In this document: positions 10,195 to 31,773 of the stretch, piece after piece
How positions within the stretch are numbered: position 1 is the stretch's first letter
How the letters are laid out: each line of letters opens with the position of its first letter
NCBI GenBank assembly: GCA_965649105.1
Contig: CBFGJP010000002.1
Coordinates: 637-64,636, forward strand
Direction: 5' to 3'
From: a candidate division WOR-3 bacterium
Lineage (GTDB): Bacteria > Hydrothermota > Tepidihabitantia > SM23-42 > JAOAFX01
Length of the DNA stretch: 64,000 nt
Notes under the pieces: generated by a model
Databases searched by the model: none
What the model was told of the DNA's origin: nothing
What the model saw: only the letters and a program-made list of their open reading frames with translations
Made by a program: the position numbers and the translations under genes

Positions 10195-11436
10195 TCATTC
10201 AACATATCTCTTAAAACAAAGTGTCGCATTATGCCCACCAAATCCCAGCGAATTTGAGAGTGCGTAATCAATCTTTGTCCTTTTTGATTCTTTTAATACA
10301 AAATTTAAACCCTCACACTCGGGGTCGGGATTTTCAAGATTGACTGACGGATGAAGGATTTGTTCATAGATTGATAAGACCGTTACCACGGCCTCAATTG
10401 CACCTGCAGCACCAAGGGTATGACCGATCATAGATTTTGTGGAATTTAGAAAAATCTTTGGAGCATGGGACCCAAACAAGTCTTTTATTGCCCTTGCCTC
10501 AAATTTATCATTCAAATCGGTTGATGTGCCGTGCGTGTTGATATAGTCTATCTGTTCTTTAGAACATCCTGCTTCTTTTATTGCCCTTTCCATTGACCTG
10601 CGTGCACCTTCTCCTTCTGGTGATGGTGCAGTTATATGATATCCGTCCCCGGTAGCGCCAAATCCAACGATTTCAGCGTAGATCTTTGCGCCACGTCTTT
10701 TGGCAAATTCTAATTCTTCCAATATCAACACTGCCGCACCTTCTGCCATTACAAAACCATCTCTTGCCTGGTCAAATGGTCTTGATGCCTTTTGTGGTTC
10801 ATCATTCCGCCGGGAAAGCGCGCGCATATTACTAAATCCTGCTAAGGCAAAAGGTGTTACTGGTGCCTCGGCACCGCCGGTAACAATGACTGAGGCATTT
10901 CCTAACTTTATTTCTCTAAACGCTGTTCCGATCGCATGAGCACCAGAAGCACAAGCAGAGACTGTAGTATAATTCGGTCCCTTCAAACCATAATGGATTG
11001 CAACATAACCAGAGGTCATATCGGGTATCATCATTGGAATCAAAAATGGCGATACCCTTGCTGGTCCTTGATTAATATATTTGATATGTTCCTCTTCCCA
11101 GGTCAACAACCCGCCAATGCCAGAGCCAATGATAACACCAATATCAGTCTTGTCGTATTTTTCAAAATCAATCTGAGCATCGGCTGCTGATTCAAGTGCT
11201 GCCCATAGACACAACTGAACGCACCGGTCAAGTCTTTTGATCGCCTTGGGATCGAGTTTCGTTTCTGGTTGAAAGTTTTTTACTTCACCAGCAATTTTTA
11301 CATTGTGTTTTGAGGTATCAAAAGATTTTATTAAATCAATACCGCTTTTCCCCTGGAGCATATTATTCCAGGTAGTCCTTACATCGTTACCCAGGGGTGT
11401 TATTGCGCCCAGTCCGGTTATTACAACCCGTTTCAT
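10195..11436 (-). CDS. fabF: 3-oxoacyl-[ACP] synthase II
   Basis: 413 aa; KAS II family throughout (active-site Cys in [16 protein letters not shown] and [12 protein letters not shown] motifs). Confidence 0.95.
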
Positions 11437-11672
11437 TGGGATTTTAATTTATCTTCAAGGTAGGCAATCGCCTTACCTACAGTATCAAGCTTCTGGGCAT
11501 CTTCTTCGGGAATTTGAATGTTGAATTTCTCTTCAAAAGCCATTATTAATTCAACTGTATCAAGAGAGTCTGCACCAAGATCTTCAATAAATTTCGCATC
11601 GGCATTAACCTTCTCGGGTGGAACATGTAATTGTTCCACAATGATATTGCGGACTTCATCAAATATTGCCAT
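11433..11672 (-). CDS. acpP: acyl carrier protein
   Basis: 79 aa, [20 protein letters not shown] phosphopantetheine-attachment motif. Confidence 0.95.
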
Positions 11673-11688
11673 TTTTTCTCCTTTCTTT

Positions 11689-12420
11689 TTACATTACCAT
11701 TCCGCCATCAATGGCGATCACCTGACCAGTAATATAGTCTGCCTGGTCCGAGGCTATAAATAGTGCCAGGTTTGCCACATCTTCAGGTTTACCAAACCTG
11801 CCCAAGGGGATTAATTTGAAATAAGCATGTTTTATTTCTTCAGGTAGTTTTTCGGTCATTCTTGTTTCAATGAACCCCGGGGCTATTGCATTTACTGTAA
11901 TATTCCGTGAGGCAAATTCCTTGGCACAGGATTTTGTAAATCCAATTATACCCGCTTTGCTTGCGGCATAATTTGACTGACCGGCATTTCCAATCAAACC
12001 GATTACTGAAGCAATATTAATGATTTTACCAAAGCGTTGTTTCATCATATATTTTACCACTGCCTTGGTCACAAGAAATGTCCCGGTGAGATTGATATTT
12101 ATTACTTTTTCCCAATCTTCTTTCGACATGCGCACAAGTAATTTGTCATTCGTTATACCGGCATTATTAACCAGAATGTCAATCTTTGTAAAATCGTTTG
12201 CGATTTTATCAATGGTTCCATTAACAGAAACTTCGTCTGCGATATTCATATAATAAAAATGTGCCCTATCACCTAAATTTCGTGCAGTTGTTTTACCCAA
12301 TTCAGCATCCACATCGACAATGATAACAACTGCATCATTTTCAATAAATTTATTTGCAATCGCGGCCCCAATTCCACCGGCACCACCAGTGATAAGGGCA
12401 ATCTTTCCATTGAGCATCAT
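11689..12420 (-). CDS. fabG: 3-oxoacyl-[ACP] reductase
   Basis: SDR family: [12 protein letters not shown] Rossmann motif, NNAG, catalytic YAASKAG. Start set to ATG 12420 rather than the track's TTG 12426. Confidence 0.9.
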
Positions 12421-15802: not shown

Positions 15803-17479
15803 ATGGGCCTAATCTTTTTTGTTCTATTTTCACTTGAAGAACCTTCAGAAATTCTGCCGAAGTGGATGACTGCAGAGGAGAGTCTGAGGGTTGATGAGAT
15901 TGGAAAAGGACATATCGTCACTGCTCCACCCGGTGGGTTTGTTGTCACCCCTGCAGAATATGAGCCAGTGCGCGGTGTATTTGTAACCTGGGCCGGTTAT
16001 ACATCAATATTGAGAGAAATTGTTCGTCATACTGTTCCTACCTGCAAAGCATATATTATATGTTCTGATAGTAATAGTGTGAAAAGCTATTTGACAAGTG
16101 GGGGTGTGCCTTTAGATAGTGTCAGGTTCTATGCCTTTCCCTACAACTCGGTCTGGATTCGTGATTATGGTCCCTGGTTTATAAGAAAGCAGGATAATAC
16201 CGAAGGCATTGTAGATTTTCAGTACAATCGTCCAAGACCCAGTGATGATACAATTCCCTGGCGTATTGGACAGGCCTGGGGGATACCAGTCTATGGTTCA
16301 CCTCTTGAACATCCGGGTGGTAACTTTATGGTGGATGGCCATGGCACCGGATTCTTCAGCAGTTTAATATATGAAGAAAATCCCGGTTATACACCCGCAC
16401 AAATCAATCAACTGATGCTTGAATATAATGGTCTTGAGCAAACAATTCCAGTAAAGAGAATCCTCACCGAATACACCGGTCATATTGATTTGTGGACAAA
16501 GATTCTAAATGATACACTTGTAATGGTTGGTGAATATGCTTCAGGACATCCTAATGATACGGTCCTTGATAACCGGGCTGATTCAATCAGCCGGTGCAAA
16601 AATAGAGAAGGATTCCCTTATCGGGTTGTCAGAATCGTCATGCCCTGGTCAACATCAGATGCACCACCAACATATCTTAATTCGCTTTTTGTAAATAATA
16701 GAATTCTGGTGCCGACCTGGGGATTGTCAACCGACCAACAGGCACTCAATACATATCAGCAATATCTGCCTAATTATACCGTTGTAGGAATAAACTGCTC
16801 ATCAATGAGTGGTTCAGGTGGTGCTATCCATTGTATAACGATGCAGGTCCCAAAATCAGAATTCATCCATATTGCACATAACCGGCTTACTGATACATAT
16901 AATATCTCCACACCCTACCGAGTTCGGGCAAGGATAATAACCTCAAGTAATCTCAGACCTGAATCAACCCTCGTATTGTATAAGAAAAATAGCCAGCCGA
17001 GTTTTACAACAGTTCCATTGAGTGCAGTTCCAGATACTGCGGGTGTTTATGCAGGGTATATACCTCCGCAATCGTCAGGTGATACAGTCCATTACTACAT
17101 TCTTGCAAAGAATAATCACAATATTCGGAGAACTTCACCTTCCTATGTACCGCCACAATTGTATTCTTTCCGTATTCTTCCAGTTGCAGTTTTAGAGCAG
17201 TATGTACGGACTTTAAATGGCTTTGCGATATATCCCAATCCGACAAAGGGGATTCTTAATTTCTTAGTAAACTTACCATATCCCGCAAAAGTAAAGATAG
17301 AGATATACAATGCAATCGGTCAGAAACTGAATATTTTTGAAGGCAAGTATGATAAAGGAAAGCATGTCATCACCTATGACATTAAACATAATAATAAGAA
17401 TCTTCCAGTTGGTGCCTATTTCTATAGGGTAGAGATTGATGAAAACATAATCAGCGGCAAATTCTTGGTGGTAAGATAA
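15803..17479 (+). CDS. secreted agmatine deiminase / Porphyromonas-type peptidylarginine deiminase (PPAD) family protein with T9SS C-terminal sorting domain
   Basis: WIRDYGP and GGAIHCITMQ catalytic-Cys motifs of the guanidino-group-modifying enzyme fold. Hydrophobic N-terminus. C-terminal approx. 80 aa with the T9SS CTD pattern (…GAYFYRVEIDENIISGKFLVVR). Confidence 0.75.
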   Translation: MGLIFFVLFSLEEPSEILPKWMTAEESLRVDEIGKGHIVTAPPGGFVVTPAEYEPVRGVFVTWAGYTSILREIVRHTVPTCKAYIICSDSNSVKSYLTSGGVPLDSVRFYAFPYNSVWIRDYGPWFIRKQDNTEGIVDFQYNRPRPSDDTIPWRIGQAWGIPVYGSPLEHPGGNFMVDGHGTGFFSSLIYEENPGYTPAQINQLMLEYNGLEQTIPVKRILTEYTGHIDLWTKILNDTLVMVGEYASGHPNDTVLDNRADSISRCKNREGFPYRVVRIVMPWSTSDAPPTYLNSLFVNNRILVPTWGLSTDQQALNTYQQYLPNYTVVGINCSSMSGSGGAIHCITMQVPKSEFIHIAHNRLTDTYNISTPYRVRARIITSSNLRPESTLVLYKKNSQPSFTTVPLSAVPDTAGVYAGYIPPQSSGDTVHYYILAKNNHNIRRTSPSYVPPQLYSFRILPVAVLEQYVRTLNGFAIYPNPTKGILNFLVNLPYPAKVKIEIYNAIGQKLNIFEGKYDKGKHVITYDIKHNNKNLPVGAYFYRVEIDENIISGKFLVVR

Positions 17480-22037: not shown

Positions 22038-22065
22038 ATTATACTCCAAATTCAATCTTTGTCAA
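22038..22065 (-). promoter_or_regulatory. sigma70-type promoter TTGACA-16-TATAAT driving tRNA-Ile, with a leader of about 85 nt
   Basis: Minus-strand ttgaca 22065..22060, tataat 22043..22038. Confidence 0.55.
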
Positions 22066-22349: not shown

Positions 22350-22377
22350 ATTATATATAAATTTCTGCCAATGTCAA
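22350..22377 (-). promoter_or_regulatory. sigma70-type promoter TTGACA-16-TATAAT for ferredoxin gene (leadered, strong SD)
   Basis: Minus-strand ttgaca 22377..22372, tataat 22355..22350, AGGAGG before ATG 22325. Confidence 0.6.
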
Positions 22378-22402: not shown

Positions 22403-23107
22403 TCAATGTGCGGGATGAAGATTATTCTTTAAAATTTCTTTTGCCCTTATTCCAATCGGTGAATTTGGGTATTTTACAACCAGTTCTTCAAGCATCTTTA
22501 ACCCCTCCTGTTTTTTTCCCATTTTTATGTAGATTTCGGCGACAAAAATCTTTGCCCGATGGATACGATTTGCTGGAAATTCTTTTTTCAACTCTTCAAG
22601 GGCAGATAATGCCTTCTCAAATTCATTTCTCTTGTCATAAACAAGCGAGAGGTAGAAGAGCGCAAAATCCCCAAGGTTTGTCTTTATGATCTTTTTTAAA
22701 CTATCCTCAGCAGATTTTAGGTCGTTGATTTCGTATCGGTAAATTGATTGTACCAATCTTTTCAAAAGAGCAGTATCCTTACGCGTAGACTCAATTAGAT
22801 GGAGCCTTTCCAGTGCCTCGTTCGCATACTTTGCATTAGAAAACCGCGCCACCGTTTTTAAATATTGTTCGCGCGCGGATAGTATTTCACATTTAAAAAA
22901 TAGATTTTCACCCATCAGATAATTTATCTCTGCCTCCGCCTCTAATCCGAAGCTATTTTCATATTTTTTTAGATAAAAGTTGGCACTATCAAATAAGCCC
23001 ATTTTGCGATATGCATCATTCAATGCAATGATATATGAATAATCTGGTTTTATTTCAATCAAATTCTTTAAGGAATCTATCTCCATAAAGAGTAAAATTA
23101 AGATCAT
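22403..23107 (-). CDS. TPR-repeat protein
   Basis: 234 aa of helical TPR-like repeats. ATGA overlap with the upstream giant ORF. Confidence 0.6.
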   Translation of the reverse strand: MILILLFMEIDSLKNLIEIKPDYSYIIALNDAYRKMGLFDSANFYLKKYENSFGLEAEAEINYLMGENLFFKCEILSAREQYLKTVARFSNAKYANEALERLHLIESTRKDTALLKRLVQSIYRYEINDLKSAEDSLKKIIKTNLGDFALFYLSLVYDKRNEFEKALSALEELKKEFPANRIHRAKIFVAEIYIKMGKKQEGLKMLEELVVKYPNSPIGIRAKEILKNNLHPAH

Positions 23108-26100
23108 TCTTGCTCCAGCAATGCCTTAAAATATTCTCTTATATAAGCTTCATATTCTACAGGATGGGGTTGTTTCAAAGCCCTTTGGATTATTTCCATT
23201 AATGCATCATGCCCCAATTCCTGCGGTAAGGAAGCCGGGGAAAGATGTCTTATATCTTCACCCGGCTTACTTTTTCTTTCTTTGGTCCAGTCTTCCTGTC
23301 TTATTGATCTTTCAGCATCAAGTAGCCTTGATATGATTAATTGCTGGCGTTCAATGAGTTTCCTATCTATTTTGTACTGATACAATGCTTCTTCCGTCTC
23401 TTTCATTTCTTCCGCAATATTATCGAGCAGTTCCTGGAATTTCCCCGCCTCAGGATAGCCTTTCAGCGATTCAAGTGCCTGTCTAAGTTCACGCTGTTTT
23501 CCGGCAAGGCGTTGAATCTGTGCCATTTGTTCGGAAGTTAATCCACTTGATAGAATGGGGAAGAGGTTAAATATTGATTGCCCAATACCCATCTGGTTTT
23601 GTGCCAGCGAAGATAAATTTTTCAAAAATTCATCAATACCAGTTGATGAACCGCTACCTTCCACAGCCTTTTTCAAACTCTGGAGCATTGATAAAGATGC
23701 AAGATTCAATTGTTTCATTGCCTCCCGAACATGGAATTTACCAGTATTTGCCGGATTTAAAGATGCTAATTCCATTTCCTTCAAAGCCTTGCTCAATCTT
23801 TTGCCAATCTCCGGTCCGACATAAATGCTTTTTACCTGCTGGGCATAAAGACTTTCTGCTACTTCATTTGTTGCCTTTGCAATCAACGATTGCCTATCCG
23901 GGTCAATCTTTTCTAATGTCAACAATTCTTCTTCAAGTTTAGACAACTCAATCAATTGATTCAGTGTTTCAAGGAGATTCCTTCGTAAATTTGCTGCCCT
24001 GCCTTTTGTCAATTCTTCATACAACCTCTGTAAATCTGCGGATAGTTTATTCAGTTCCTTTTTTAGTTCTTCGGGATTGAGGTTTTCTCCGTGAGACATT
24101 GAATGCGCCTGTTTTGAAGCCTGTTTTAATTGTTCTGAGATTTCTGGTTCAAGATTTTCGGATTCAGAAAGTTTTTCAATTTCTTTTGCAAGGCTATCAA
24201 TGGTTCGGTAAAGACTATCAAGGGATTCTTTCAATCCTTCCATTCCTTTGATTTCGCCAAGTCTTTTTAAATCTTCTGCCTGCTCCGACAATTCCTTTGC
24301 CTTATCGGCAAGTTCTTTTAATCTTTCTTCCTGTTGATACCTTTTTAGTAGTTCAAGGGTTCTCTCCAATGCGTTAGCAAGTTCTTCCTGGGCTTCCTTC
24401 AATTGTTCCATTGCCTTTTTTAGTTCTTCAGGATTTTTATGCAATGCCTGCTGCAAGTTCTCAAGTGCCCTTTTTAACTCCTCGGGTGCAATTTCTTTAA
24501 GTATTTTCGTAATCTCCTGGAGTCTTTCAATCGATTTCTGATCGAGAAAGATTCCGCTCTTTAATTTATCAATCGTATTCTTCAATTCATTTTGCCATTC
24601 TTCAATCTTTTTTAGGACCTCCTCTTCTTTATTTATGACTTCTTTAAGTTTTTCATTATCAAGCCAGGATAATTCTCGCTCCCGTTTTAATTTCTCTTCA
24701 AGCCTTTTTACTTCCTTCATTCCTTCCTGATGAGTACTTTTGAGATCTTTAATTTCAGATACAACCATTTCTTCCCTGCCCTTTACTTCTTCATATATTT
24801 GTTCCATTGTGGGGAAGTAAATGAAATATGTCTTGCTCTTAGTACGCTGACCACCCTGGTCCTGGACGACAACAAAATAAGAAACTCTATCTCCCGGCAA
24901 CATCCTCAGTTCGCTTAAATCCCACACATAAAAGATTGTATCATCAGTGCTGCCTTTTTTAAACTTCAAACTTATATCTTCCGCATTCTTGAATTGATAC
25001 ATTAGATTAACCTTACTCAAGCCATAATCATCACTGCATCTTATCCCCAAGGTGATTTTCATATTCGGGGGCATATTGATGTTGTATCCGGGAGAAAAAA
25101 TCTCTACAAGAGGCGCGAGGTCTGGTATTGCATAGATTGATATTTCTTCATTATGCGACGTTTCTCCGATGATTATTAAATTGGCTGTACCGCTTGAAGC
25201 AATTTTAAATCTTCCCGAAAATGATTCTCCATTACAGATAAGTTCTGTTGTATCGTTAAATAATAATCTTGCCTGGTTAATAACCTGCGATGCCTTTCCT
25301 TTTATCTCTACTTCTGTTCCCACAGGAACAATCAACTGTCTATCGTTCTTTATTTCATCCCACAACTTTGTATATTTTGGATAATGAATATAAAAGGTTA
25401 ACTCTTTTAGATATATTGGTTCAATAACACCTATGCTATAATCACCGGTCTTCAAATTGAAGAATTCAAAATGATAATTGAATGGTTCAATTATTTCAAT
25501 CTTTTTGTTTGCTTTACCATCAATAACCGGTAGTTCAAATCTTTTTATCCCGGTTTTTGTTTTGTAAACAAACACTACTTTTTCTGGAATATATGGTCCA
25601 AAAAGATTTAATGTAAATTCTACATTATCATTACGGCTAAATCTCCCTGATTTTGGTATAACAGTATATTCAATCCTGTGATTCAACGCAAACCAGAATC
25701 TACCCGGTAAGAATCCTGGAAAAGAAAGGACAAAGAGTAATGAAATTAAAAAAAACCCCAATGACCAGTTTAGAAACTTCTTGTCCGTAAATTTTTTGAC
25801 TTCAATATTAGCAAATTTTTCATCTGTAGATTCAACAAACGCATTTATCAGTTCTCTTGAGTAACCTTCACGATTATTTTCAGGGATGTGGAATATCTCA
25901 ATGGTGCTCACAATCTCGCCATTTGCGCCAACTTTCCGGTCTAACTCTTTTGCCCACTCGGCAAATTTTTTCCTACGATAAAAAATTATTGGAATTAAAC
26001 CGATAAATCCGTATAACGGAGATTTCAATAAAAATAACGAGACGGTTGTAGAAATCAGAATTGCACCTAAGGTGAATAAAAGCAAAGCAAAAAAATTTAT

Positions 26101-26151
26101 TAATCCTTGTTTATGTGCATACTTAATTACTTTTCTATCAATTATTGTCAT
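23104..26151 (-). CDS. giant membrane-anchored protein: N-terminal double TM and second TM pair, beta-rich middle region, approx. 320-aa coiled-coil, helical C-terminal domain
   Basis: 1015 aa. TM segments at approx. 20-60 and 125-150. Residues approx. 440-760 are strongly heptad-like E/K/L-rich. Translationally coupled to DUF4159 (upstream) and TPR (downstream) genes. Confidence 0.6.
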   Translation of the reverse strand: MTIIDRKVIKYAHKQGLINFFALLLFTLGAILISTTVSLFLLKSPLYGFIGLIPIIFYRRKKFAEWAKELDRKVGANGEIVSTIEIFHIPENNREGYSRELINAFVESTDEKFANIEVKKFTDKKFLNWSLGFFLISLLFVLSFPGFLPGRFWFALNHRIEYTVIPKSGRFSRNDNVEFTLNLFGPYIPEKVVFVYKTKTGIKRFELPVIDGKANKKIEIIEPFNYHFEFFNLKTGDYSIGVIEPIYLKELTFYIHYPKYTKLWDEIKNDRQLIVPVGTEVEIKGKASQVINQARLLFNDTTELICNGESFSGRFKIASSGTANLIIIGETSHNEEISIYAIPDLAPLVEIFSPGYNINMPPNMKITLGIRCSDDYGLSKVNLMYQFKNAEDISLKFKKGSTDDTIFYVWDLSELRMLPGDRVSYFVVVQDQGGQRTKSKTYFIYFPTMEQIYEEVKGREEMVVSEIKDLKSTHQEGMKEVKRLEEKLKRERELSWLDNEKLKEVINKEEEVLKKIEEWQNELKNTIDKLKSGIFLDQKSIERLQEITKILKEIAPEELKRALENLQQALHKNPEELKKAMEQLKEAQEELANALERTLELLKRYQQEERLKELADKAKELSEQAEDLKRLGEIKGMEGLKESLDSLYRTIDSLAKEIEKLSESENLEPEISEQLKQASKQAHSMSHGENLNPEELKKELNKLSADLQRLYEELTKGRAANLRRNLLETLNQLIELSKLEEELLTLEKIDPDRQSLIAKATNEVAESLYAQQVKSIYVGPEIGKRLSKALKEMELASLNPANTGKFHVREAMKQLNLASLSMLQSLKKAVEGSGSSTGIDEFLKNLSSLAQNQMGIGQSIFNLFPILSSGLTSEQMAQIQRLAGKQRELRQALESLKGYPEAGKFQELLDNIAEEMKETEEALYQYKIDRKLIERQQLIISRLLDAERSIRQEDWTKERKSKPGEDIRHLSPASLPQELGHDALMEIIQRALKQPHPVEYEAYIREYFKALLEQE

Positions 26152-26783
26152 CTCAGCGTTAATACATAAACAACAATATTTATTCCCATTCTCAATGCCT
26201 GTTCTCTTTTTTCCGGTGGGTCATTATGCACATCCGGGTCTTCCCAACCGTCACCAAGATCAGTCTCATAGGAATAGAATAATACAAGACGATTATTATA
26301 AAATATACCGAATCCCTGGGCAGGTTTATTATCATGCTCATGGATTTTAGGAAGTCCTTCAGGAAAATCATAAAAAGAATGGTATATAGGATGGTCAAAG
26401 GGTAGTGGAATCAATGGTGAATCAGGAAACACCCGTGCTATTTCTTTTCTAAAAGAAGAATCCATCCCATAACAGTCATCTGCGTGGAGAAAGCCACCAT
26501 TGATTAGATAATTCCTTAAAATTTTTACCTCTTCATCACTAAATTTAACATTACCATGGCCAGTCATATAAAGATAAGGGTATTTAAATATATCAGGGTT
26601 TGTGAGTTCAACCACCGCCTCTTTTGGTGCGGCGCGAATGTTGGTTCTTTCATTAATTGCCTTCAATAGATTGGGTAGGGAACTCGGGTCACAATACCAA
26701 TCTCCGCCGCCTCCATATTTCAATCGCGCAATGGTAAAATCATACTGGTTGAACAACAAAAGTTCAAGAAGCAAAAAGACCAT
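26148..26783 (-). CDS. DUF4159-family protein
   Basis: 211 aa; hydrophobic N-terminus; conserved motifs YGGGGDWYCDP, YPYLYMTGHG, GGFLHADDCYG as remembered for DUF4159. Confidence 0.55.
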   Translation of the reverse strand: MVFLLLELLLFNQYDFTIARLKYGGGGDWYCDPSSLPNLLKAINERTNIRAAPKEAVVELTNPDIFKYPYLYMTGHGNVKFSDEEVKILRNYLINGGFLHADDCYGMDSSFRKEIARVFPDSPLIPLPFDHPIYHSFYDFPEGLPKIHEHDNKPAQGFGIFYNNRLVLFYSYETDLGDGWEDPDVHNDPPEKREQALRMGINIVVYVLTLR

Positions 26784-26860
26784 ATTTTTATTATAAACTA
26801 AAACAAATCTTTGTCAAGATAAGAATAAATTCAGTTGCTGCCTTTAATAAAAAATATATC

Positions 26861-26895: not shown

Positions 26896-27258
26896 ATGAT
26901 TTTAATAATCTTATTTCTTCTCAGCCAGCAACCGAAAGAGACAAATCCGGTAAAGGTAGTCTTTAAAACAACTATAAAATTATATCAAAAACTTATTTCA
27001 CCAGCCCAGGGTGATGTCTGTAATTTTTCTCCTTCCTGTTCTCATTTTGCCTCAGCAGCAATTGAAAAATATGGAATATTCTGGGGTTCCTTGATGGCTG
27101 CTGACCGTCTGATGCGGTGCAATCCTTCAGCAATAAATTACTTTGATACATTTTATTCCGGCATAAAGGATAATAAAGTATATGACCCTGTAGAAAATAA
27201 TTATATTTTAGGATCGATTAAAAAGCATTTTGAAATATTTATTGAGCCGATAGAATGA
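26896..27258 (+). CDS. yidD: membrane protein insertion efficiency factor YidD
   Basis: ISPAQGDVCNFSPSCSHFASAAIEKYG…RLMRCNP matches the YidD (DUF37) signature. Confidence 0.8.
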   Translation: MILIILFLLSQQPKETNPVKVVFKTTIKLYQKLISPAQGDVCNFSPSCSHFASAAIEKYGIFWGSLMAADRLMRCNPSAINYFDTFYSGIKDNKVYDPVENNYILGSIKKHFEIFIEPIE

Positions 27259-27959
27259 TTATCTTTTTTATCTTATTTCAGTCAGAATTATTCAATCCTG
27301 AGCAAATTTTAAAATTTGGTGATTGTTTATTCATTGAAGGCGATTATAATGCGGCGTTAAATGAATATCGTAGATACTTATATTTATGCGATAGCAATAA
27401 ACAGGTGGTTAATGAAAAAATAATTGATTGTCTGGCACATTTGGGGAGATATGATGAAGCCATCTCGGCATTAAAGTATTTTGATGATTCAACCAAACTA
27501 ATATATACAAAATCCTGGTTATATCTATTAAAAAAAGATTATCCCGCAGTCAGAGATTTGCTTAAGGATAAAGTTAATGAACAAAAGGCAAGGCATTATA
27601 TCGGATTGAGTTATGCCGGTGAATTCAACTTTGCAAAGGCCGGCGAATTCATTAATTTACCAAACCCCCTACCTCGGCATAAGAGCCCATTCCTTGGTGG
27701 ATTATTCTCTTTATTCCCCGGTGGTGGCAATTTTTATTGCAAAAGAGTCGGAGATGGAATCTACTCAATGCTTATAATCGGTACCGGTGCGGGAATTGCT
27801 TACTATTATCATTCGCAAAATGAAAATACAAAATTTTATCTCGCCCTCGGGATAAGTCTTTTATTTTATGCCGGCAACATTTATGGCGGGATAAATGCTG
27901 TGCGTAACTATAATTATTACGAAGATGTAAGATATCGGGATTTAATTTTTAATAGATGA
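27255..27959 (+). CDS. TPR-like N-terminal domain / Gly-rich membrane C-terminal domain protein (paralog A)
   Basis: C-terminal LFPGGGNFYCKRVGDG…IGTGAGIAYYY…YAGNIYGGINA pattern; ATGA coupling on both sides. Confidence 0.5.
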   Translation: MIIFFILFQSELFNPEQILKFGDCLFIEGDYNAALNEYRRYLYLCDSNKQVVNEKIIDCLAHLGRYDEAISALKYFDDSTKLIYTKSWLYLLKKDYPAVRDLLKDKVNEQKARHYIGLSYAGEFNFAKAGEFINLPNPLPRHKSPFLGGLFSLFPGGGNFYCKRVGDGIYSMLIIGTGAGIAYYYHSQNENTKFYLALGISLLFYAGNIYGGINAVRNYNYYEDVRYRDLIFNR

Positions 27960-28711
27960 TACTTTTAATCTTCAGTCAATTTTGTCTTGCTGAATCTTTG
28001 TTCTATAATAATCAATACGATCTGGCAGTGATTGAATATAAAAGATTATTCTTCTTTGATTCTACTTCATATAAAAATATGCAATTGCGTTTGCATTACA
28101 CCATTACACGCCTTTATAAAGATTATTTCTCAGGCTATGAAGATCTACAAAAATTATTGAATGATTTTCCGGATATTGATGCAGAATCTAGAATCTTGCT
28201 TGCTAAAGAGCTCATCAATACTGATAATTTTAGCCTTGCCATTGATGTTTTGAAATCAATCAGCGAAGATAATCTTTTGAAAAAAAGGTTAACCGGTTAC
28301 GGTTATTTATTTAACCATCAATATTATAATGCCTTGCACGAATTTCAAGGTATGGATGAAAATCTCAGTGCAGAGATAGAGCGGTATATAAATGGGTCAC
28401 GAAAGTCAATCACCCGTGCAATGTTATTCTCCGCAATTCTACCGGGCACGGGTGAAGTATATGCGGGTGATTTAAAAAGAGGAATTCAGGATTTCATTCT
28501 TACCTTTTTGAGTGGATTTCTGATGTATAACTCAATCAAAAATAAAAAATATGTAGATGCCGGGATTATATTTAGTCTTGCATTCAATCGTTTTTACTTT
28601 GGTTCAATATCTAATGCGGGAAGGATTGTTTATAAAATAAATGAACAATCAGAAGAGGAATTTTTAAAAAAAATAAAATTGAAATATTATCAACAGGAGT
28701 TCAATGATTAA
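27956..28711 (+). CDS. TPR-like N-terminal domain / Gly-rich membrane C-terminal domain protein (paralog B)
   Basis: Same architecture as 27255-27959, with C-terminal ILPGTGEVYAGDLKRG…FLSGFLMYN motif. Confidence 0.5.
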   Translation: MILLIFSQFCLAESLFYNNQYDLAVIEYKRLFFFDSTSYKNMQLRLHYTITRLYKDYFSGYEDLQKLLNDFPDIDAESRILLAKELINTDNFSLAIDVLKSISEDNLLKKRLTGYGYLFNHQYYNALHEFQGMDENLSAEIERYINGSRKSITRAMLFSAILPGTGEVYAGDLKRGIQDFILTFLSGFLMYNSIKNKKYVDAGIIFSLAFNRFYFGSISNAGRIVYKINEQSEEEFLKKIKLKYYQQEFND

Positions 28712-28834: not shown

Positions 28835-30496
28835 ATGATTCCACTAATTTTTATTTTATTATCAATGCCACCAAGTCCGTATACCCGGGCACCGATTAAA
28901 CCCCCCAAATTTCCTGCCTTAATGAATAGAGGCCCGGGATTTATTCAACCGGCACTCGGTGAAAAAAAGACAATTGTAATACTTGTGGATTTTTCCGATA
29001 ATGTAGCACAATATCCTAAGTCAGGATTTGATTCTTTGATCTATGGCGAAAATGAAAATTCTATGCGTAAATACTACAGTGAAGTATCCTATGGAAAGTT
29101 TACCATCAGCAAACAGAGTAATATCGTCGGCTGGGTTCGTGCACCGCAGAATTATGACTATTATGTCGGTGATTCATTTGGCTTTTACAGTGATTATCCC
29201 CATAATGTGCAGAAACTTGTCGAAGATGCCTGTGCCCTTGCTGACCCTTATGTTGATTTTTCTCAATATGACGGCGATGGCGATGGAATAGTGGATGGGA
29301 TATTCATTGTCCATGCCGGTCCGGGTGCTGAAGAAACCGGTAGTCCAAATGATATCTGGTCCCACCAGTGGCAACTCTCAAATACCGGGACGAGTTGTCC
29401 CGGACCTTATCAGACCCAAGACGGGGTGAAGGTAGATTATTACTCAATGGAACCGGAAAAGCTTGTTAATCCGCCTTCAAGGATCACGGTTGGTGTCTTT
29501 GTCCATGAATTTGGCCATGTACTTGGATTGCCTGATTTGTACGATATAGATTACTCAACAAATGGAATTGGTTTGTTCTGTTTAATGGCGGCTGGTTCCT
29601 GGGGTAGAATCAATTCTGCAGATCTCCCCGGCAATTCGCCATCCCATCCTTCTGCCTGGTGCAAATATCAACTGGGCTGGCTTACACCGACACCGGTAGA
29701 ACAGTCTGGGATTAGCAAATTGGAGCAGCAGTTAATTCCCTGCTCAGCAAAGAGTCCATTTGCAATTCGGATGTGTGAAGACCCGGGTGGTCCAGACTGG
29801 AATAGTTATACTGGTGGAAGGGGTGAATATTTCCTGATTGAGAACAGATACCGAACTGGATTTGACCGCGCGCTTCCTGGTAATGGATTGCTCATTCTCC
29901 ATGTTGATGATTCAAGAACAACCAACCAAAATGAAAACCATCCATTGGTCGGTATTATGCAGGCAGATGGTGAGGCTGGTTTTTTGCTTCCAAGGTCCAC
30001 CTGGGGAAGGGCTGAAGACTTATGGAAGAATGACACGATTGGATTCTATGATGGTTCAATACCATCAAGTAGATTTTATGGCGATTCCGCAAGCGGTGTA
30101 ACAGTTTATAATATCGGACCTGCAGATTCTATAATGACCGCATCCTTCTGGATAAGCCCAGTATTTCTGGGAAGGGTTGCTTCGTTTCCTAATCCATTTC
30201 GAGCTGATCGATTACCGTCGTGGGGCAAAAGTGTTGTTATTTCATATACACCATCTGATACCACCGAGTTAGGTGCTCAACATCCACCGTTTAAAGTCAC
30301 AATATATAATATCGCAGGAGAAAGGGTAAGAATTCTTGATACCCCAGATGAAATTGACATCTATAGAAGGTGTGCATTATGGGATTTGAAGAACGAAAAA
30401 GGAAATGATGTGGTGAGTGGGATGTATATCTATGTTATTGAATTACAGACAGAAAGGGTAGAAAGGAGTAAGGGTAGACTCACTATAATCAGATAA
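28835..30496 (+). CDS. secreted M6-family (immune inhibitor A-like) zinc metalloprotease with T9SS C-terminal sorting domain
   Basis: HEFGHVLGLPDLYD zincin motif in M6 context; N-terminal signal sequence; C-terminal approx. 80 aa with T9SS CTD pattern (…KVTIYNIAGERVRIL…GMYIYVIELQT…). Confidence 0.75.
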   Translation: MIPLIFILLSMPPSPYTRAPIKPPKFPALMNRGPGFIQPALGEKKTIVILVDFSDNVAQYPKSGFDSLIYGENENSMRKYYSEVSYGKFTISKQSNIVGWVRAPQNYDYYVGDSFGFYSDYPHNVQKLVEDACALADPYVDFSQYDGDGDGIVDGIFIVHAGPGAEETGSPNDIWSHQWQLSNTGTSCPGPYQTQDGVKVDYYSMEPEKLVNPPSRITVGVFVHEFGHVLGLPDLYDIDYSTNGIGLFCLMAAGSWGRINSADLPGNSPSHPSAWCKYQLGWLTPTPVEQSGISKLEQQLIPCSAKSPFAIRMCEDPGGPDWNSYTGGRGEYFLIENRYRTGFDRALPGNGLLILHVDDSRTTNQNENHPLVGIMQADGEAGFLLPRSTWGRAEDLWKNDTIGFYDGSIPSSRFYGDSASGVTVYNIGPADSIMTASFWISPVFLGRVASFPNPFRADRLPSWGKSVVISYTPSDTTELGAQHPPFKVTIYNIAGERVRILDTPDEIDIYRRCALWDLKNEKGNDVVSGMYIYVIELQTERVERSKGRLTIIR

Positions 30497-30501
30497 AGTA
30501 A

Positions 30502-31773
30502 ATGGCACAAAAAAGCAATTATCCGAGAGATATATCAATCGTCTCGGCGGTATTTATACTTTTGATAATTTTCCTGGCGATAGTAAATCTATACATTGGC
30601 ACCCAACTAAGAAAAACATTTCTGAATTCCCAGCAAGAAAAGATATACTCTATAGCAAGCCTTTGTGGTTATTATTTAAATAATCCCGATAGTGCAAAGG
30701 CATTAAAGATAATTTCCGAATCTTTTGGTATTGGTAGGCTCATTATCAGTGATTCTCTGGGTAGAAGGATTTATGATTCTGCCATTTCTGTGAAAATCCC
30801 CGGGATTGTCTTTGATGAAACAAGGAAATTTTCTAAATTACCCGGGCAGGGGGATATTATTCAAGTAGCTAATGATGTTGTCTATCATAATCCCCAGCCT
30901 GATTTTTATTTATATCTTTTTGACTTTACAAATTATGCAATGATTGATAATATCTTCCGCTGGCATATGATATATATCACACTATCTTTGCTTTTCATAT
31001 CATTTCTTGGTGTTTTTTTGCTCAGAAATCTTTTTCTACCAATGCAATATGTTGCGGGAGTTGCCCGCAAATACGGTATAGAAATGAAAAAAGAAGATTT
31101 TGTTTTCACAACCTTTGGTGAAATTTTTAACAAAATAAAAGAGAAAGAGAAAGAACTCCTTGAACTTTCTGCTTATATTGCCCATGAATTCAGAAATTCG
31201 CTTGCTACAATTACCGGTCTTGCACATTTGATTGAAAAAGGCAAAAAAGAGCCAGCAGAGATTATTAAAGAATGTAATATAATGGACGGTTTGATCAATA
31301 GCCTCATCGAATATGCCCGCCCGGTAAAATTGATGAAGACGGCATTCGAATTAACTACTTTGATTGACGAAGGAATAAAAAAGGCGAATATCCCTGTGGA
31401 AATAAAGGTTGAGAAAGATTATAAATACCAGGGAAAATTAACTGCTGATTATGAATTAATATTAGGTGCAGTAATTAATATTTTAAAAAACAGCGTTGAG
31501 GCAATGGACACAGGTGGTAAGATAAGAATAACTACGAATAAAAATAAAGAAGAAGATTCAGTTTTAATATCAATTGCTGATACTGGGAAAGGTATTCCAT
31601 CGGATATGATAAAAAATATTTTTAGTCCATTTTATTCAGGCAAAAAAGAAGGAACGGGACTGGGACTGGCATTTGTTAAAAAAGTCATCGATATTCATGA
31701 TGGAAGGATAAACGTTAATTCTAAGGTTGGCAAAGGGACAGAATTTTTAATAAGAATACCGCTCAATCTCTGA
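30502..31773 (+). CDS. sensor histidine kinase (orphan; no cognate response regulator adjacent)
   Basis: Two TM helices flanking a periplasmic domain; H-box AHEFRNSLATI; HATPase_c G-boxes (DTGKGIP, GTGLGLAFVKK). Confidence 0.8.
   Translation: MAQKSNYPRDISIVSAVFILLIIFLAIVNLYIGTQLRKTFLNSQQEKIYSIASLCGYYLNNPDSAKALKIISESFGIGRLIISDSLGRRIYDSAISVKIPGIVFDETRKFSKLPGQGDIIQVANDVVYHNPQPDFYLYLFDFTNYAMIDNIFRWHMIYITLSLLFISFLGVFLLRNLFLPMQYVAGVARKYGIEMKKEDFVFTTFGEIFNKIKEKEKELLELSAYIAHEFRNSLATITGLAHLIEKGKKEPAEIIKECNIMDGLINSLIEYARPVKLMKTAFELTTLIDEGIKKANIPVEIKVEKDYKYQGKLTADYELILGAVINILKNSVEAMDTGGKIRITTNKNKEEDSVLISIADTGKGIPSDMIKNIFSPFYSGKKEGTGLGLAFVKKVIDIHDGRINVNSKVGKGTEFLIRIPLNL

Follow-up and report, generated by a model that had tools for sequence, protein, structure and literature searches.

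The three-gene operon

We analysed a stretch of 64,000 nucleotides, hereafter called the window, from a candidate division WOR-3 bacterium (GenBank assembly GCA_965649105.1, contig CBFGJP010000002.1, positions 637 to 64,636), with a focus on an operon of three minus-strand genes. The open reading frames (ORFs) encode a DUF4159 protein, a giant protein of 1015 amino acids (aa) and a tetratricopeptide repeat (TPR) protein (Table 1). An earlier reading of the DNA, made without database searches (the sequence-only reading), had described these genes as translationally coupled. Both ATGA stop/start overlaps can indeed be read directly in the sequence, the second one being formed by the start of the TPR gene and the stop codon of the giant gene. 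The DUF4159 gene is preceded by a sigma-70-type promoter that matches TTGACA-16-TATAAT at all 12 positions. The three genes form a separate transcription unit, because they are joined by both overlaps and served by this private promoter, and because a new promoter follows the stop codon of the TPR gene.

The -10 hexamer of the operon promoter ends 7 nt ahead of the DUF4159 ATG, and there is no space for a ribosome-binding site between them. With so short a distance the transcript may therefore have little or no leader, which suggests a leaderless or near-leaderless mRNA. The downstream ferredoxin gene, unlike the DUF4159 gene, is preceded by a clear AAGGAGG. Three perfect promoters are found inside 5 kb, the other two being those of the ferredoxin gene and of tRNA-Ile.

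Table 1. Positions of the operon, of the regions of the giant protein and of other features. Positions refer to the window, except in the last two rows, where they refer to the loci named. TM, transmembrane; Ig, immunoglobulin; pLDDT, predicted local distance difference test.
Feature	Position	Strand	Description or evidence
DUF4159 gene (gene 1)	26148-26783	minus	ORF of 211 aa
Giant-protein gene (gene 2)	23104-26151	minus	ORF of 1015 aa
TPR gene (gene 3)	22403-23107	minus	ORF of 234 aa
Giant residues 1-148: TM1-TM2 hairpin (~17-58), helical loop (59-127), TM3 (128-148)	25708-26151	minus	Hydropathy, charge, AlphaFold
Giant residues 160-446: three tandem Ig-like β-sandwich domains	24814-25674	minus	Model (pLDDT ~90), Foldseek
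Giant residues 449-770: E/K/L-rich heptad-periodic helices	23842-24807	minus	Periodicity, DSSP of the model
Giant residues 771-1015 and stop codon: conserved helical-bundle C-terminal region	23104-23841	minus	Model; core common with DUF4175
Operon promoter, sigma-70-type, TTGACA-16-TATAAT, 12/12 matches	26790-26817	minus	Promoter scan and sequence read
Ferredoxin gene promoter, TTGACA-16-TATAAT, 12/12 matches	22350-22377	minus	After the TPR stop codon
tRNA-Ile promoter, TTGACA-16-TATAAT, 12/12 matches	22038-22065	minus	Promoter scan
yidD and two small exported-protein genes	26896-28711	plus	
Peptidyl-arginine deiminase gene	15803-17479	plus	
M6 metalloprotease gene	28835-30496	plus	
c9 family member, L054 (and 12 other loci)	10794-12152	plus	
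c9 family member, L002	13295-14545		

Assignment of the giant protein to DUF4175

The giant protein of the window had no significant sequence match in Pfam, NCBIfam or PDB, and the searches returned coiled-coil noise alone (CSTF2_hinge, Mce4_CUP1, MCE and designed coiled coils). We identified about 90 full-length orthologues, and the closest matches were all from WOR-3 metagenome-assembled genomes (MAGs). One orthologue (P0041) is 46% identical to the giant protein over 100% of the length and scores 76.1 bits against PF13779 (DUF4175), the cut-off being 27.3 bits. In total, 16 of 38 aligned members of the giant family passed the PF13779 model, with a best E-value of 7e-31. Since full-length orthologues match this family, transitive homology places the giant protein in DUF4175 as a divergent member. 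At E<=1e-30, a profile of the giant family matched 5243 representative proteins, each of which stands for one 50%-identity cluster. TIGR02302, the alphaproteobacterial equivalog of DUF4175, matched neither the window protein nor its relatives L057 and L084 from the Fibrobacteres-Chlorobi-Bacteroidetes (FCB) group. The suggestion that the giant protein lacks a recognisable family was thus too strong. It has no match to a well-characterised family: DUF4175 alone was found, which is a family without an assigned function, reached through the orthologues.

The DUF4175/TIGR02302 proteins of Rhodobacter sphaeroides (RSP_0730) and Azorhizobium caulinodans share with the giant protein the N-terminal TM helices, the very long extracytoplasmic body and a conserved helical core at the C-terminal end. 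The pairing with a DUF4159 gene and a TPR gene is described here for the FCB branch alone. In Rhodobacter, the TIGR02302/DUF4175 gene is a member of the CenR envelope regulon (PMC9275681). For Azorhizobium, the deletion of the TIGR02302 gene is cited as causing overproduction of exopolysaccharide and failure of host infection (Sato 2016, as cited in PMC6842974).

Architecture and topology of the giant protein

The structure of the giant protein was modelled with AlphaFold2 from a 38-sequence alignment; the mean pLDDT was 77.5, and residues 1-445 reached values of about 90. Three hydrophobic segments (residues ~17-41, 44-58 and 128-148) are indicated both by hydropathy and by the model, which contains helices at residues 2-40, 45-56, 63-121 and 125-147 in the N-terminal region. 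The sequence-only reading had proposed a double-TM hairpin followed by a second TM pair, and the count must be corrected from two pairs to three segments. Lys/Arg-rich stretches are located at the N-terminus and at both ends of the loop at residues 59-127. Because the number of TM segments is odd, the large body is predicted to be placed outside the cytoplasm, such that the loop of about 65 aa would be cytoplasmic and residues 150-1015 periplasmic.

Two residues in the loop, Q85 and L101, are near-invariant across phyla, as might be expected if the giant protein were a transmembrane sensor. Its periplasmic bundles would then detect an envelope signal, with the DUF4159 and TPR proteins as co-sensors, and the loop would signal to a cytoplasmic partner. 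An RsbW-like HATPase_c_2 gene next to the giant gene in Bacteroidota and a histidine kinase gene about 4 kb away in the window (30502-31773) also point in this direction. However, the HATPase_c_2 neighbour is confined to loci without the DUF4159 and TPR genes, and the kinase gene, which has the opposite orientation, is not a conserved neighbour. Furthermore, Pfam and NCBIfam identified no HAMP, kinase, GGDEF or other output domain in the giant protein, and its matches to four-helix bundles are generic, with designed bundles at the top of the list. We therefore regard a sensor role as quite improbable.

A β-rich region of about 280 aa had been noted downstream of the TM segments, and residues 161-445 are modelled as three β-sandwich domains with a pLDDT of about 90. 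A Foldseek search with this region identified tandem Ig/macroglobulin (MG) domains alone, for example those of SiiE and complement C3/C5 (E ~1e-7). The third Ig-like domain holds residues that are invariant across phyla (D374, D375 and D431). The remaining part, about 570 aa, is helical and consists of bundles and coiled coils. Residues 449-770 show a hydrophobic periodicity of 3.5 residues (z=9.2 relative to shuffled sequences), and their PDB matches are designed coiled coils only. The region had been described as an uninterrupted coiled coil of about 320 aa; the heptad periodicity was recovered, but not the continuity, since the helices are broken in the model and the longest one covers residues 574-662 according to DSSP. 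The idea that the protein serves as a coiled-coil ruler is conjectural. Residues 771-1015 are helical in the model, in line with the helical C-terminal domain proposed earlier, and end with the motif YxxYIREYFxxL.

Taken together, the giant protein has the architecture of DUF4175, with N-terminal TM helices followed by a long, mostly helical, non-cytoplasmic region. Fold searches with the model revealed no specific functional relative, as the matches were generic only (tandem Ig/MG domains and four-helix bundles such as the talin rod and designed bundles). A motif scan of all three operon proteins identified no DxSxS motif (metal ion-dependent adhesion site, MIDAS), P-loop or HExxH motif, which agrees with the initial observation that the giant protein has neither a vWA MIDAS nor a P-loop.

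These features also bear on the possibility that the giant protein is a membrane-tethered cytoplasmic coiled-coil protein of the cytoskeleton or division machinery, similar to EzrA and to AdvA of Acinetobacter, and that its neighbours are functionally unrelated. AdvA, which is essential for division, is described as having an annotated DUF4175 domain and two predicted TM helices (PMC7481262), the Rhodobacter DUF4175 gene belongs to a division/envelope regulon (PMC9275681), and the giant protein has a long heptad-periodic helical region. Yet the odd TM count and the charge distribution place the body outside the cytoplasm, and the three Ig-like sandwiches are typical of extracytoplasmic proteins. 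The tightly linked partners are predicted to be exported, and the linkage with 4-nt overlaps is kept across phyla. A cytoplasmic division protein is thus highly improbable.

The DUF4159 protein is the most constrained subunit

The first gene encodes a protein with a clear, full-domain match to PF13709 (DUF4159), as proposed for a protein of about 210 aa (E=3.9e-77; 258.8 bits versus a cut-off of 25.9 bits). The match covers residues 17-208 and corresponds to profile positions 1-202 of 202. In an alignment of 60 sequences, 44 columns are conserved to at least 98%. The invariant motifs include GGGDWY, GHG, DxYG (D103-x-Y-G), KxHxH (K146-x-H-x-H) and D175/D178/D182, and the invariant polar residues are D28, H76, D103, D108, R112, K146, H148, H150, D175, D178, D182 and R193. 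The median identity of the DUF4159 proteins is 77.5% in the WOR-3-type loci and 59% in other loci, as compared to 48.5% and 27% for the giant protein and to 40% for the TPR protein in the WOR-3-type loci. By these identities, the DUF4159 protein is by far the most constrained subunit of the trio.

The DUF4159 protein is clearly a small α/β protein of the GATase1-like fold class. The conserved nucleophilic cysteine at the nucleophile elbow that characterises class I glutamine amidotransferases is absent: C104 varies among the 60 sequences, while D103, Y105 and G106 are kept. The sole solved relative is PDB 4i66 (Hoch_4089 of Haliangium ochraceum), which is itself uncharacterised and differs from the operon-linked subfamily in that it lacks the GGGDWY and HEHD motifs, both of which are invariant in the latter. 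After 4i66, the structural neighbours are the non-catalytic GIFT domains of IFT52 and OST48, as identified with a poor query model. Hydrolases and domains that handle sugars also belong to this fold class, examples being ThuA, the GH42 middle domain, PelA and OST48.

Such a pattern of conservation could mean that the DUF4159 protein is the functional centre of the system. It would then be a periplasmic enzyme acting on an envelope polymer (peptidoglycan, a lipid-linked sugar or an exopolysaccharide), and the giant protein would be no more than a tether that fixes its distance from the membrane, without the involvement of any MoxR system. The identity across phyla, the invariant polar cluster from D28 to R193 and the hydrolases in the fold class are all consistent with this, as is the altered exopolysaccharide upon deletion of the alphaproteobacterial DUF4175 gene in the study cited in PMC6842974. 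On the other hand, the canonical GATase cysteine is not conserved, the closest structures besides 4i66 come from non-catalytic domains, and the crystallised relative lacks the HEHD motif. Moreover, we found no activity in the literature for any family member, and among the full-text papers searched none gave DUF4159 or DUF4175 a molecular function. We hold a catalytic centre of this kind to be possible, though rather unlikely.

A stand-alone DUF4159 gene was identified on the Corynebacterium crudilactis plasmid pCRULAC1 (NZ_CP015623.1; L083 8968-9585), and its product is 56% identical to the window protein. It adjoins a dihydrofolate reductase gene inside an IS26/ISVsa3-rich multi-resistance region of this actinobacterial plasmid, and was presumably captured from an FCB-type chromosome.

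The TPR protein and the predicted location of the subunits

The product of the third gene contains TPR_6/TPR_2 repeats (TPR_6, E=1e-11 in Pfam), as expected for the TPR protein proposed earlier, and its C-terminal half is similar to YbgF/CpoB. An orthologue of 608 aa in the same locus position scores 95.5 bits against TIGR02795 at residues 476-589, which is above the cut-off of 90.1 bits.

The orthologues of the DUF4159 protein and of the large TPR protein have classical signal peptides in Latescibacterota, Calditrichota, Ignavibacteriales, Zixibacteria and Bacteroidota. The WOR-3 proteins instead start with a short, uncharged hydrophobic stretch (MVFLLLELLLFNQ... and MILILLFME...). Two type IX secretion cargo proteins encoded in the window, which must leave the cytoplasm given their C-terminal domains, have N-termini of the same style (MIPLIFILLSM... 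and MGLIFFVLFSLEE...), and it looks like a lineage-specific type of signal peptide. Because their N-termini match export signals of this genome, and because the orthologues elsewhere have classical signal peptides, the DUF4159 and TPR proteins are predicted to be exported, and both are most likely periplasmic and placed next to the large domain of the giant protein. The three predicted TM helices in the giant protein and the export signals on both partners uphold the envelope location that had been suggested.

Short uncharged hydrophobic N-termini without a positive n-region are found in several plus-strand genes of the window (15803-17479, 26896-27258, 27255-27959, 27956-28711 and 28835-30496). 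The first of these encodes a Porphyromonas-type peptidyl-arginine deiminase (PAD_porph, E=1e-45) with a type IX secretion C-terminal sorting domain, and the last an M6 metalloprotease with a weak, below-threshold match to the CHU_C type IX C-terminal domain (E=0.001).

The trio resembles TolA and CpoB (YbgF) of the Tol-Pal system, which likewise combine an inner-membrane anchor that has a long helical periplasmic domain with a periplasmic YbgF-type TPR protein. However, TolA and the giant protein are unrelated in sequence, and the trio, unlike Tol-Pal, has no TolQ/R-like motor partners. The likeness to TolA-CpoB is an architectural analogy and not a family membership.

Gene order is conserved across FCB phyla

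To describe the gene neighbourhoods, we scanned one genome per species with an alignment of giant proteins from WOR-3 only, which identified 79 loci and, together with three loci fetched earlier, gave a set of 82. The set covers WOR-3, Stahlbacteria, Zixibacteria, Latescibacterota, Gemmatimonadota, Calditrichota, Ignavibacteriales and Bacteroidota. A DUF4159 gene immediately precedes the giant gene, in the same orientation, in 66 of the 82 loci. As a contig end truncates seven of the 16 loci without it, the pair is found in 66 of 75 assessable loci, which span at least seven FCB phyla. The gene directly after the giant gene encodes a TPR protein in 61 of 82 loci, and the survey thereby bears out the linkage of the three genes that had been proposed. 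The WOR-3-type loci encode a TPR protein of 235 aa, and the loci elsewhere a secreted form of about 608 aa. Most gaps between the genes measure -4 to +12 nt in the WOR-3-type loci, and gaps of up to about 200 nt are found in other phyla. Conservation extends to the ATGA overlaps, and the flanking genes vary by lineage.

We considered that the gene order may be inherited synteny only, such that the three proteins do not work together, as could be argued from the solitary giant gene in Flavobacteriia-type genomes and from the different third genes in different phyla. This is difficult to reconcile with an adjacency of the DUF4159 and giant genes in 66 of 75 assessable loci across the lineages listed above while the flanking genes change, with the conserved ATGA overlaps and with the single promoter of the operon, and we give this explanation very little credence.

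In Bacteroidota, the gene for the giant homologue is divergent from gltX (L085, L086, L003 and L087). The next gene in L085 (11241-11636) and L086 (11373-11786) encodes an RsbW-like HATPase_c_2 protein and precedes ybeY, and in L003 and L087 ybeY comes directly after the giant gene and before mnmG. The neighbouring gltX gene probably explains why two proteins (P0104 and P0105) are annotated as “Glutamyl-tRNA synthetase” in the source. An apparent fusion of DUF4159 and the giant protein in L029 (5350-9033, an ORF of 1227 aa) was rejected as an artefact, with a run of N (scaffold gap or mask) at the junction. A link to type IX secretion, based on the FCB distribution and on a PorP/SprF-like neighbour, was dropped as well, the neighbour being confined to Ignavibacteriales-type loci. 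Anti-phage defence was also dismissed, since PADLOC gave coiled-coil noise only (JetC and DndD, E ~0.007-0.009).

Relationship to MoxR, DUF58 and Bat systems

In 11 loci from Latescibacterota and Gemmatimonadota, the trio is extended on the same strand in the order DUF4159, giant, TPR, c9 and MoxR, and in 10 of these a DUF58 gene follows the MoxR gene. MoxR proteins are AAA+ ATPases. The c9 family consists of secreted proteins of about 452 aa. In 13 loci they are encoded after the large TPR gene, and in most of these loci ahead of MoxR-DUF58. The family has no match in Pfam, NCBIfam or PDB. It is missing from the window, and c9 seems to represent a fourth, uncharacterised subunit. The cultured Gemmatirosa kalamazoonensis has a second, more distant cluster with the order vWA, TPR, DUF4159, MoxR, DUF58, BatA_N/VWA_2/GATase1_like and DUF4175-like. 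Its DUF4159 protein has a signal peptide and its MoxR protein is of the AAA_3 type (E=1e-59). The DUF4175-like protein matches the hidden Markov model of the giant family (E=3.9e-51) and shares the C-terminal motif (...YxxLVDEYFKAL). These 11 loci and the Gemmatirosa cluster agree with the statement in the sequence-only reading that DUF4159 proteins are found beside large TM proteins and MoxR/vWA modules.

No homologues of MoxR (AAA_3), DUF58 or BatA were identified in the 64-kb window, and the description of the module as stripped to three genes therefore holds at this locus. The results support the view that the WOR-3 operon is, at this locus, a stripped form of the MoxR/DUF58-linked envelope module. 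The Bat (Bacteroides aerotolerance) systems (BatA-E; BB0170-0176 in Borrelia and RL3499-RL3502 in Rhizobium) are, like the trio, periplasm-facing membrane-anchored complexes with TPR subunits and GATase1-like domains. The window TPR protein corresponds to the BatC/BatE-like TPR subunit at the level of repeat similarity only. Pfam searches and the DxSxS scan identified no BatA_N, vWA/MIDAS or BatD components in the operon or elsewhere in the 64-kb window. As these parts, MoxR and DUF58 are absent, the operon is not a Bat operon by its defining components. The vWA domain of the BatA-like protein BB0173 is periplasmic (PMC5700661), and the MoxR protein RL3499 is summarised in PMC3893208 as being required for membrane integrity and morphology.

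A periplasmic scaffold as the proposed role

On balance, we lean towards a model in which the trio forms a periplasm-facing complex of three parts, where the giant protein is a scaffold that positions the DUF4159 protein and the complex is the core of a larger envelope module. The giant protein would be anchored in the inner membrane and place the DUF4159 protein in the envelope, and the exported DUF4159 protein and the YbgF/CpoB-like TPR protein would dock on it. The DUF4159 protein may be a ligand binder or an enzyme built around the invariant His/Asp cluster. CpoB binds TolA, and the TPR protein could by analogy be an adaptor. The trio would thus represent the periplasmic core of an envelope-maintenance module, to which other FCB phyla add cytoplasmic MoxR and DUF58 proteins, and sometimes BatA/vWA. 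The conserved cytoplasmic loop of the giant protein is a likely contact site for ATP-dependent cytoplasmic partners where these are present. Such a complex would be expected to serve envelope integrity or homeostasis, rather than catalysis by the giant protein itself.

Several observations weigh against this model. The giant protein in the window has no match to PF13779 in Pfam even at E<=10, and the TPR protein in the window is well below the YbgF/CpoB cut-off (39.8 versus 90.1 bits for TIGR02795). The predicted structure of the DUF4159 protein, inferred from a shallow alignment, is of low confidence (pLDDT 56) and is therefore too poor to judge the geometry of an active site or whether the invariant residues group into one site. 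The third position is occupied by a patatin-POTRA-Omp85 gene in Calditrichia and by a BatA-like double-TM/vWA gene in Ignavibacteriales, rather than by a TPR gene. Finally, the giant gene is located alone between gltX and ybeY, without a DUF4159 or TPR gene, in Flavobacteriia-type Bacteroidota.

A more specific version of the scaffold model is offered tentatively, as we consider it doubtful in its full form. According to this, the DUF4159 protein would act in the periplasm, either as an enzyme not recognised before or by binding a metal or a ligand, with a GATase1-like fold and the invariant His/Asp cluster as its basis. The giant protein would position it in the envelope and the TPR protein would be the adaptor. 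The three proteins would together make up a minimal, MoxR-independent envelope-maintenance machine that is near-universal in WOR-3 and common across FCB.

The interpretation of the operon as an envelope module is supported by these analyses, and the observations of the sequence-only reading were largely right, with two corrections that concern the TM count and the continuity of the coiled coil. The operon is not categorically new: it represents, without MoxR at this locus, a minimal version of a recurrent but uncharacterised envelope module composed of two DUF families that had been catalogued before. The window has an ordinary orthologue of this widespread module, and this copy is of value as a representative rather than an oddity. 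DUF4159 and DUF4175 are large families, neither with a molecular function assigned in the literature that we found. Here they emerge as a pair of genes that is conserved across FCB phyla, has products that are probably periplasmic, and recurs as the core of MoxR/DUF58-linked clusters. Envelope systems of the Bat/MoxR type, which are poorly understood, can thereby be approached within a concrete and testable framework, in which the three-gene WOR-3 form represents the minimal set.

Genes flanking the operon

The yidD gene is divergent from the operon, and the two overlapping genes after it encode small exported proteins, of which one is weakly TPR-like and the other is without a known family. 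The arrangement of yidD and the two small exported genes beside the operon is common only to the closest relatives, L005 and L027.

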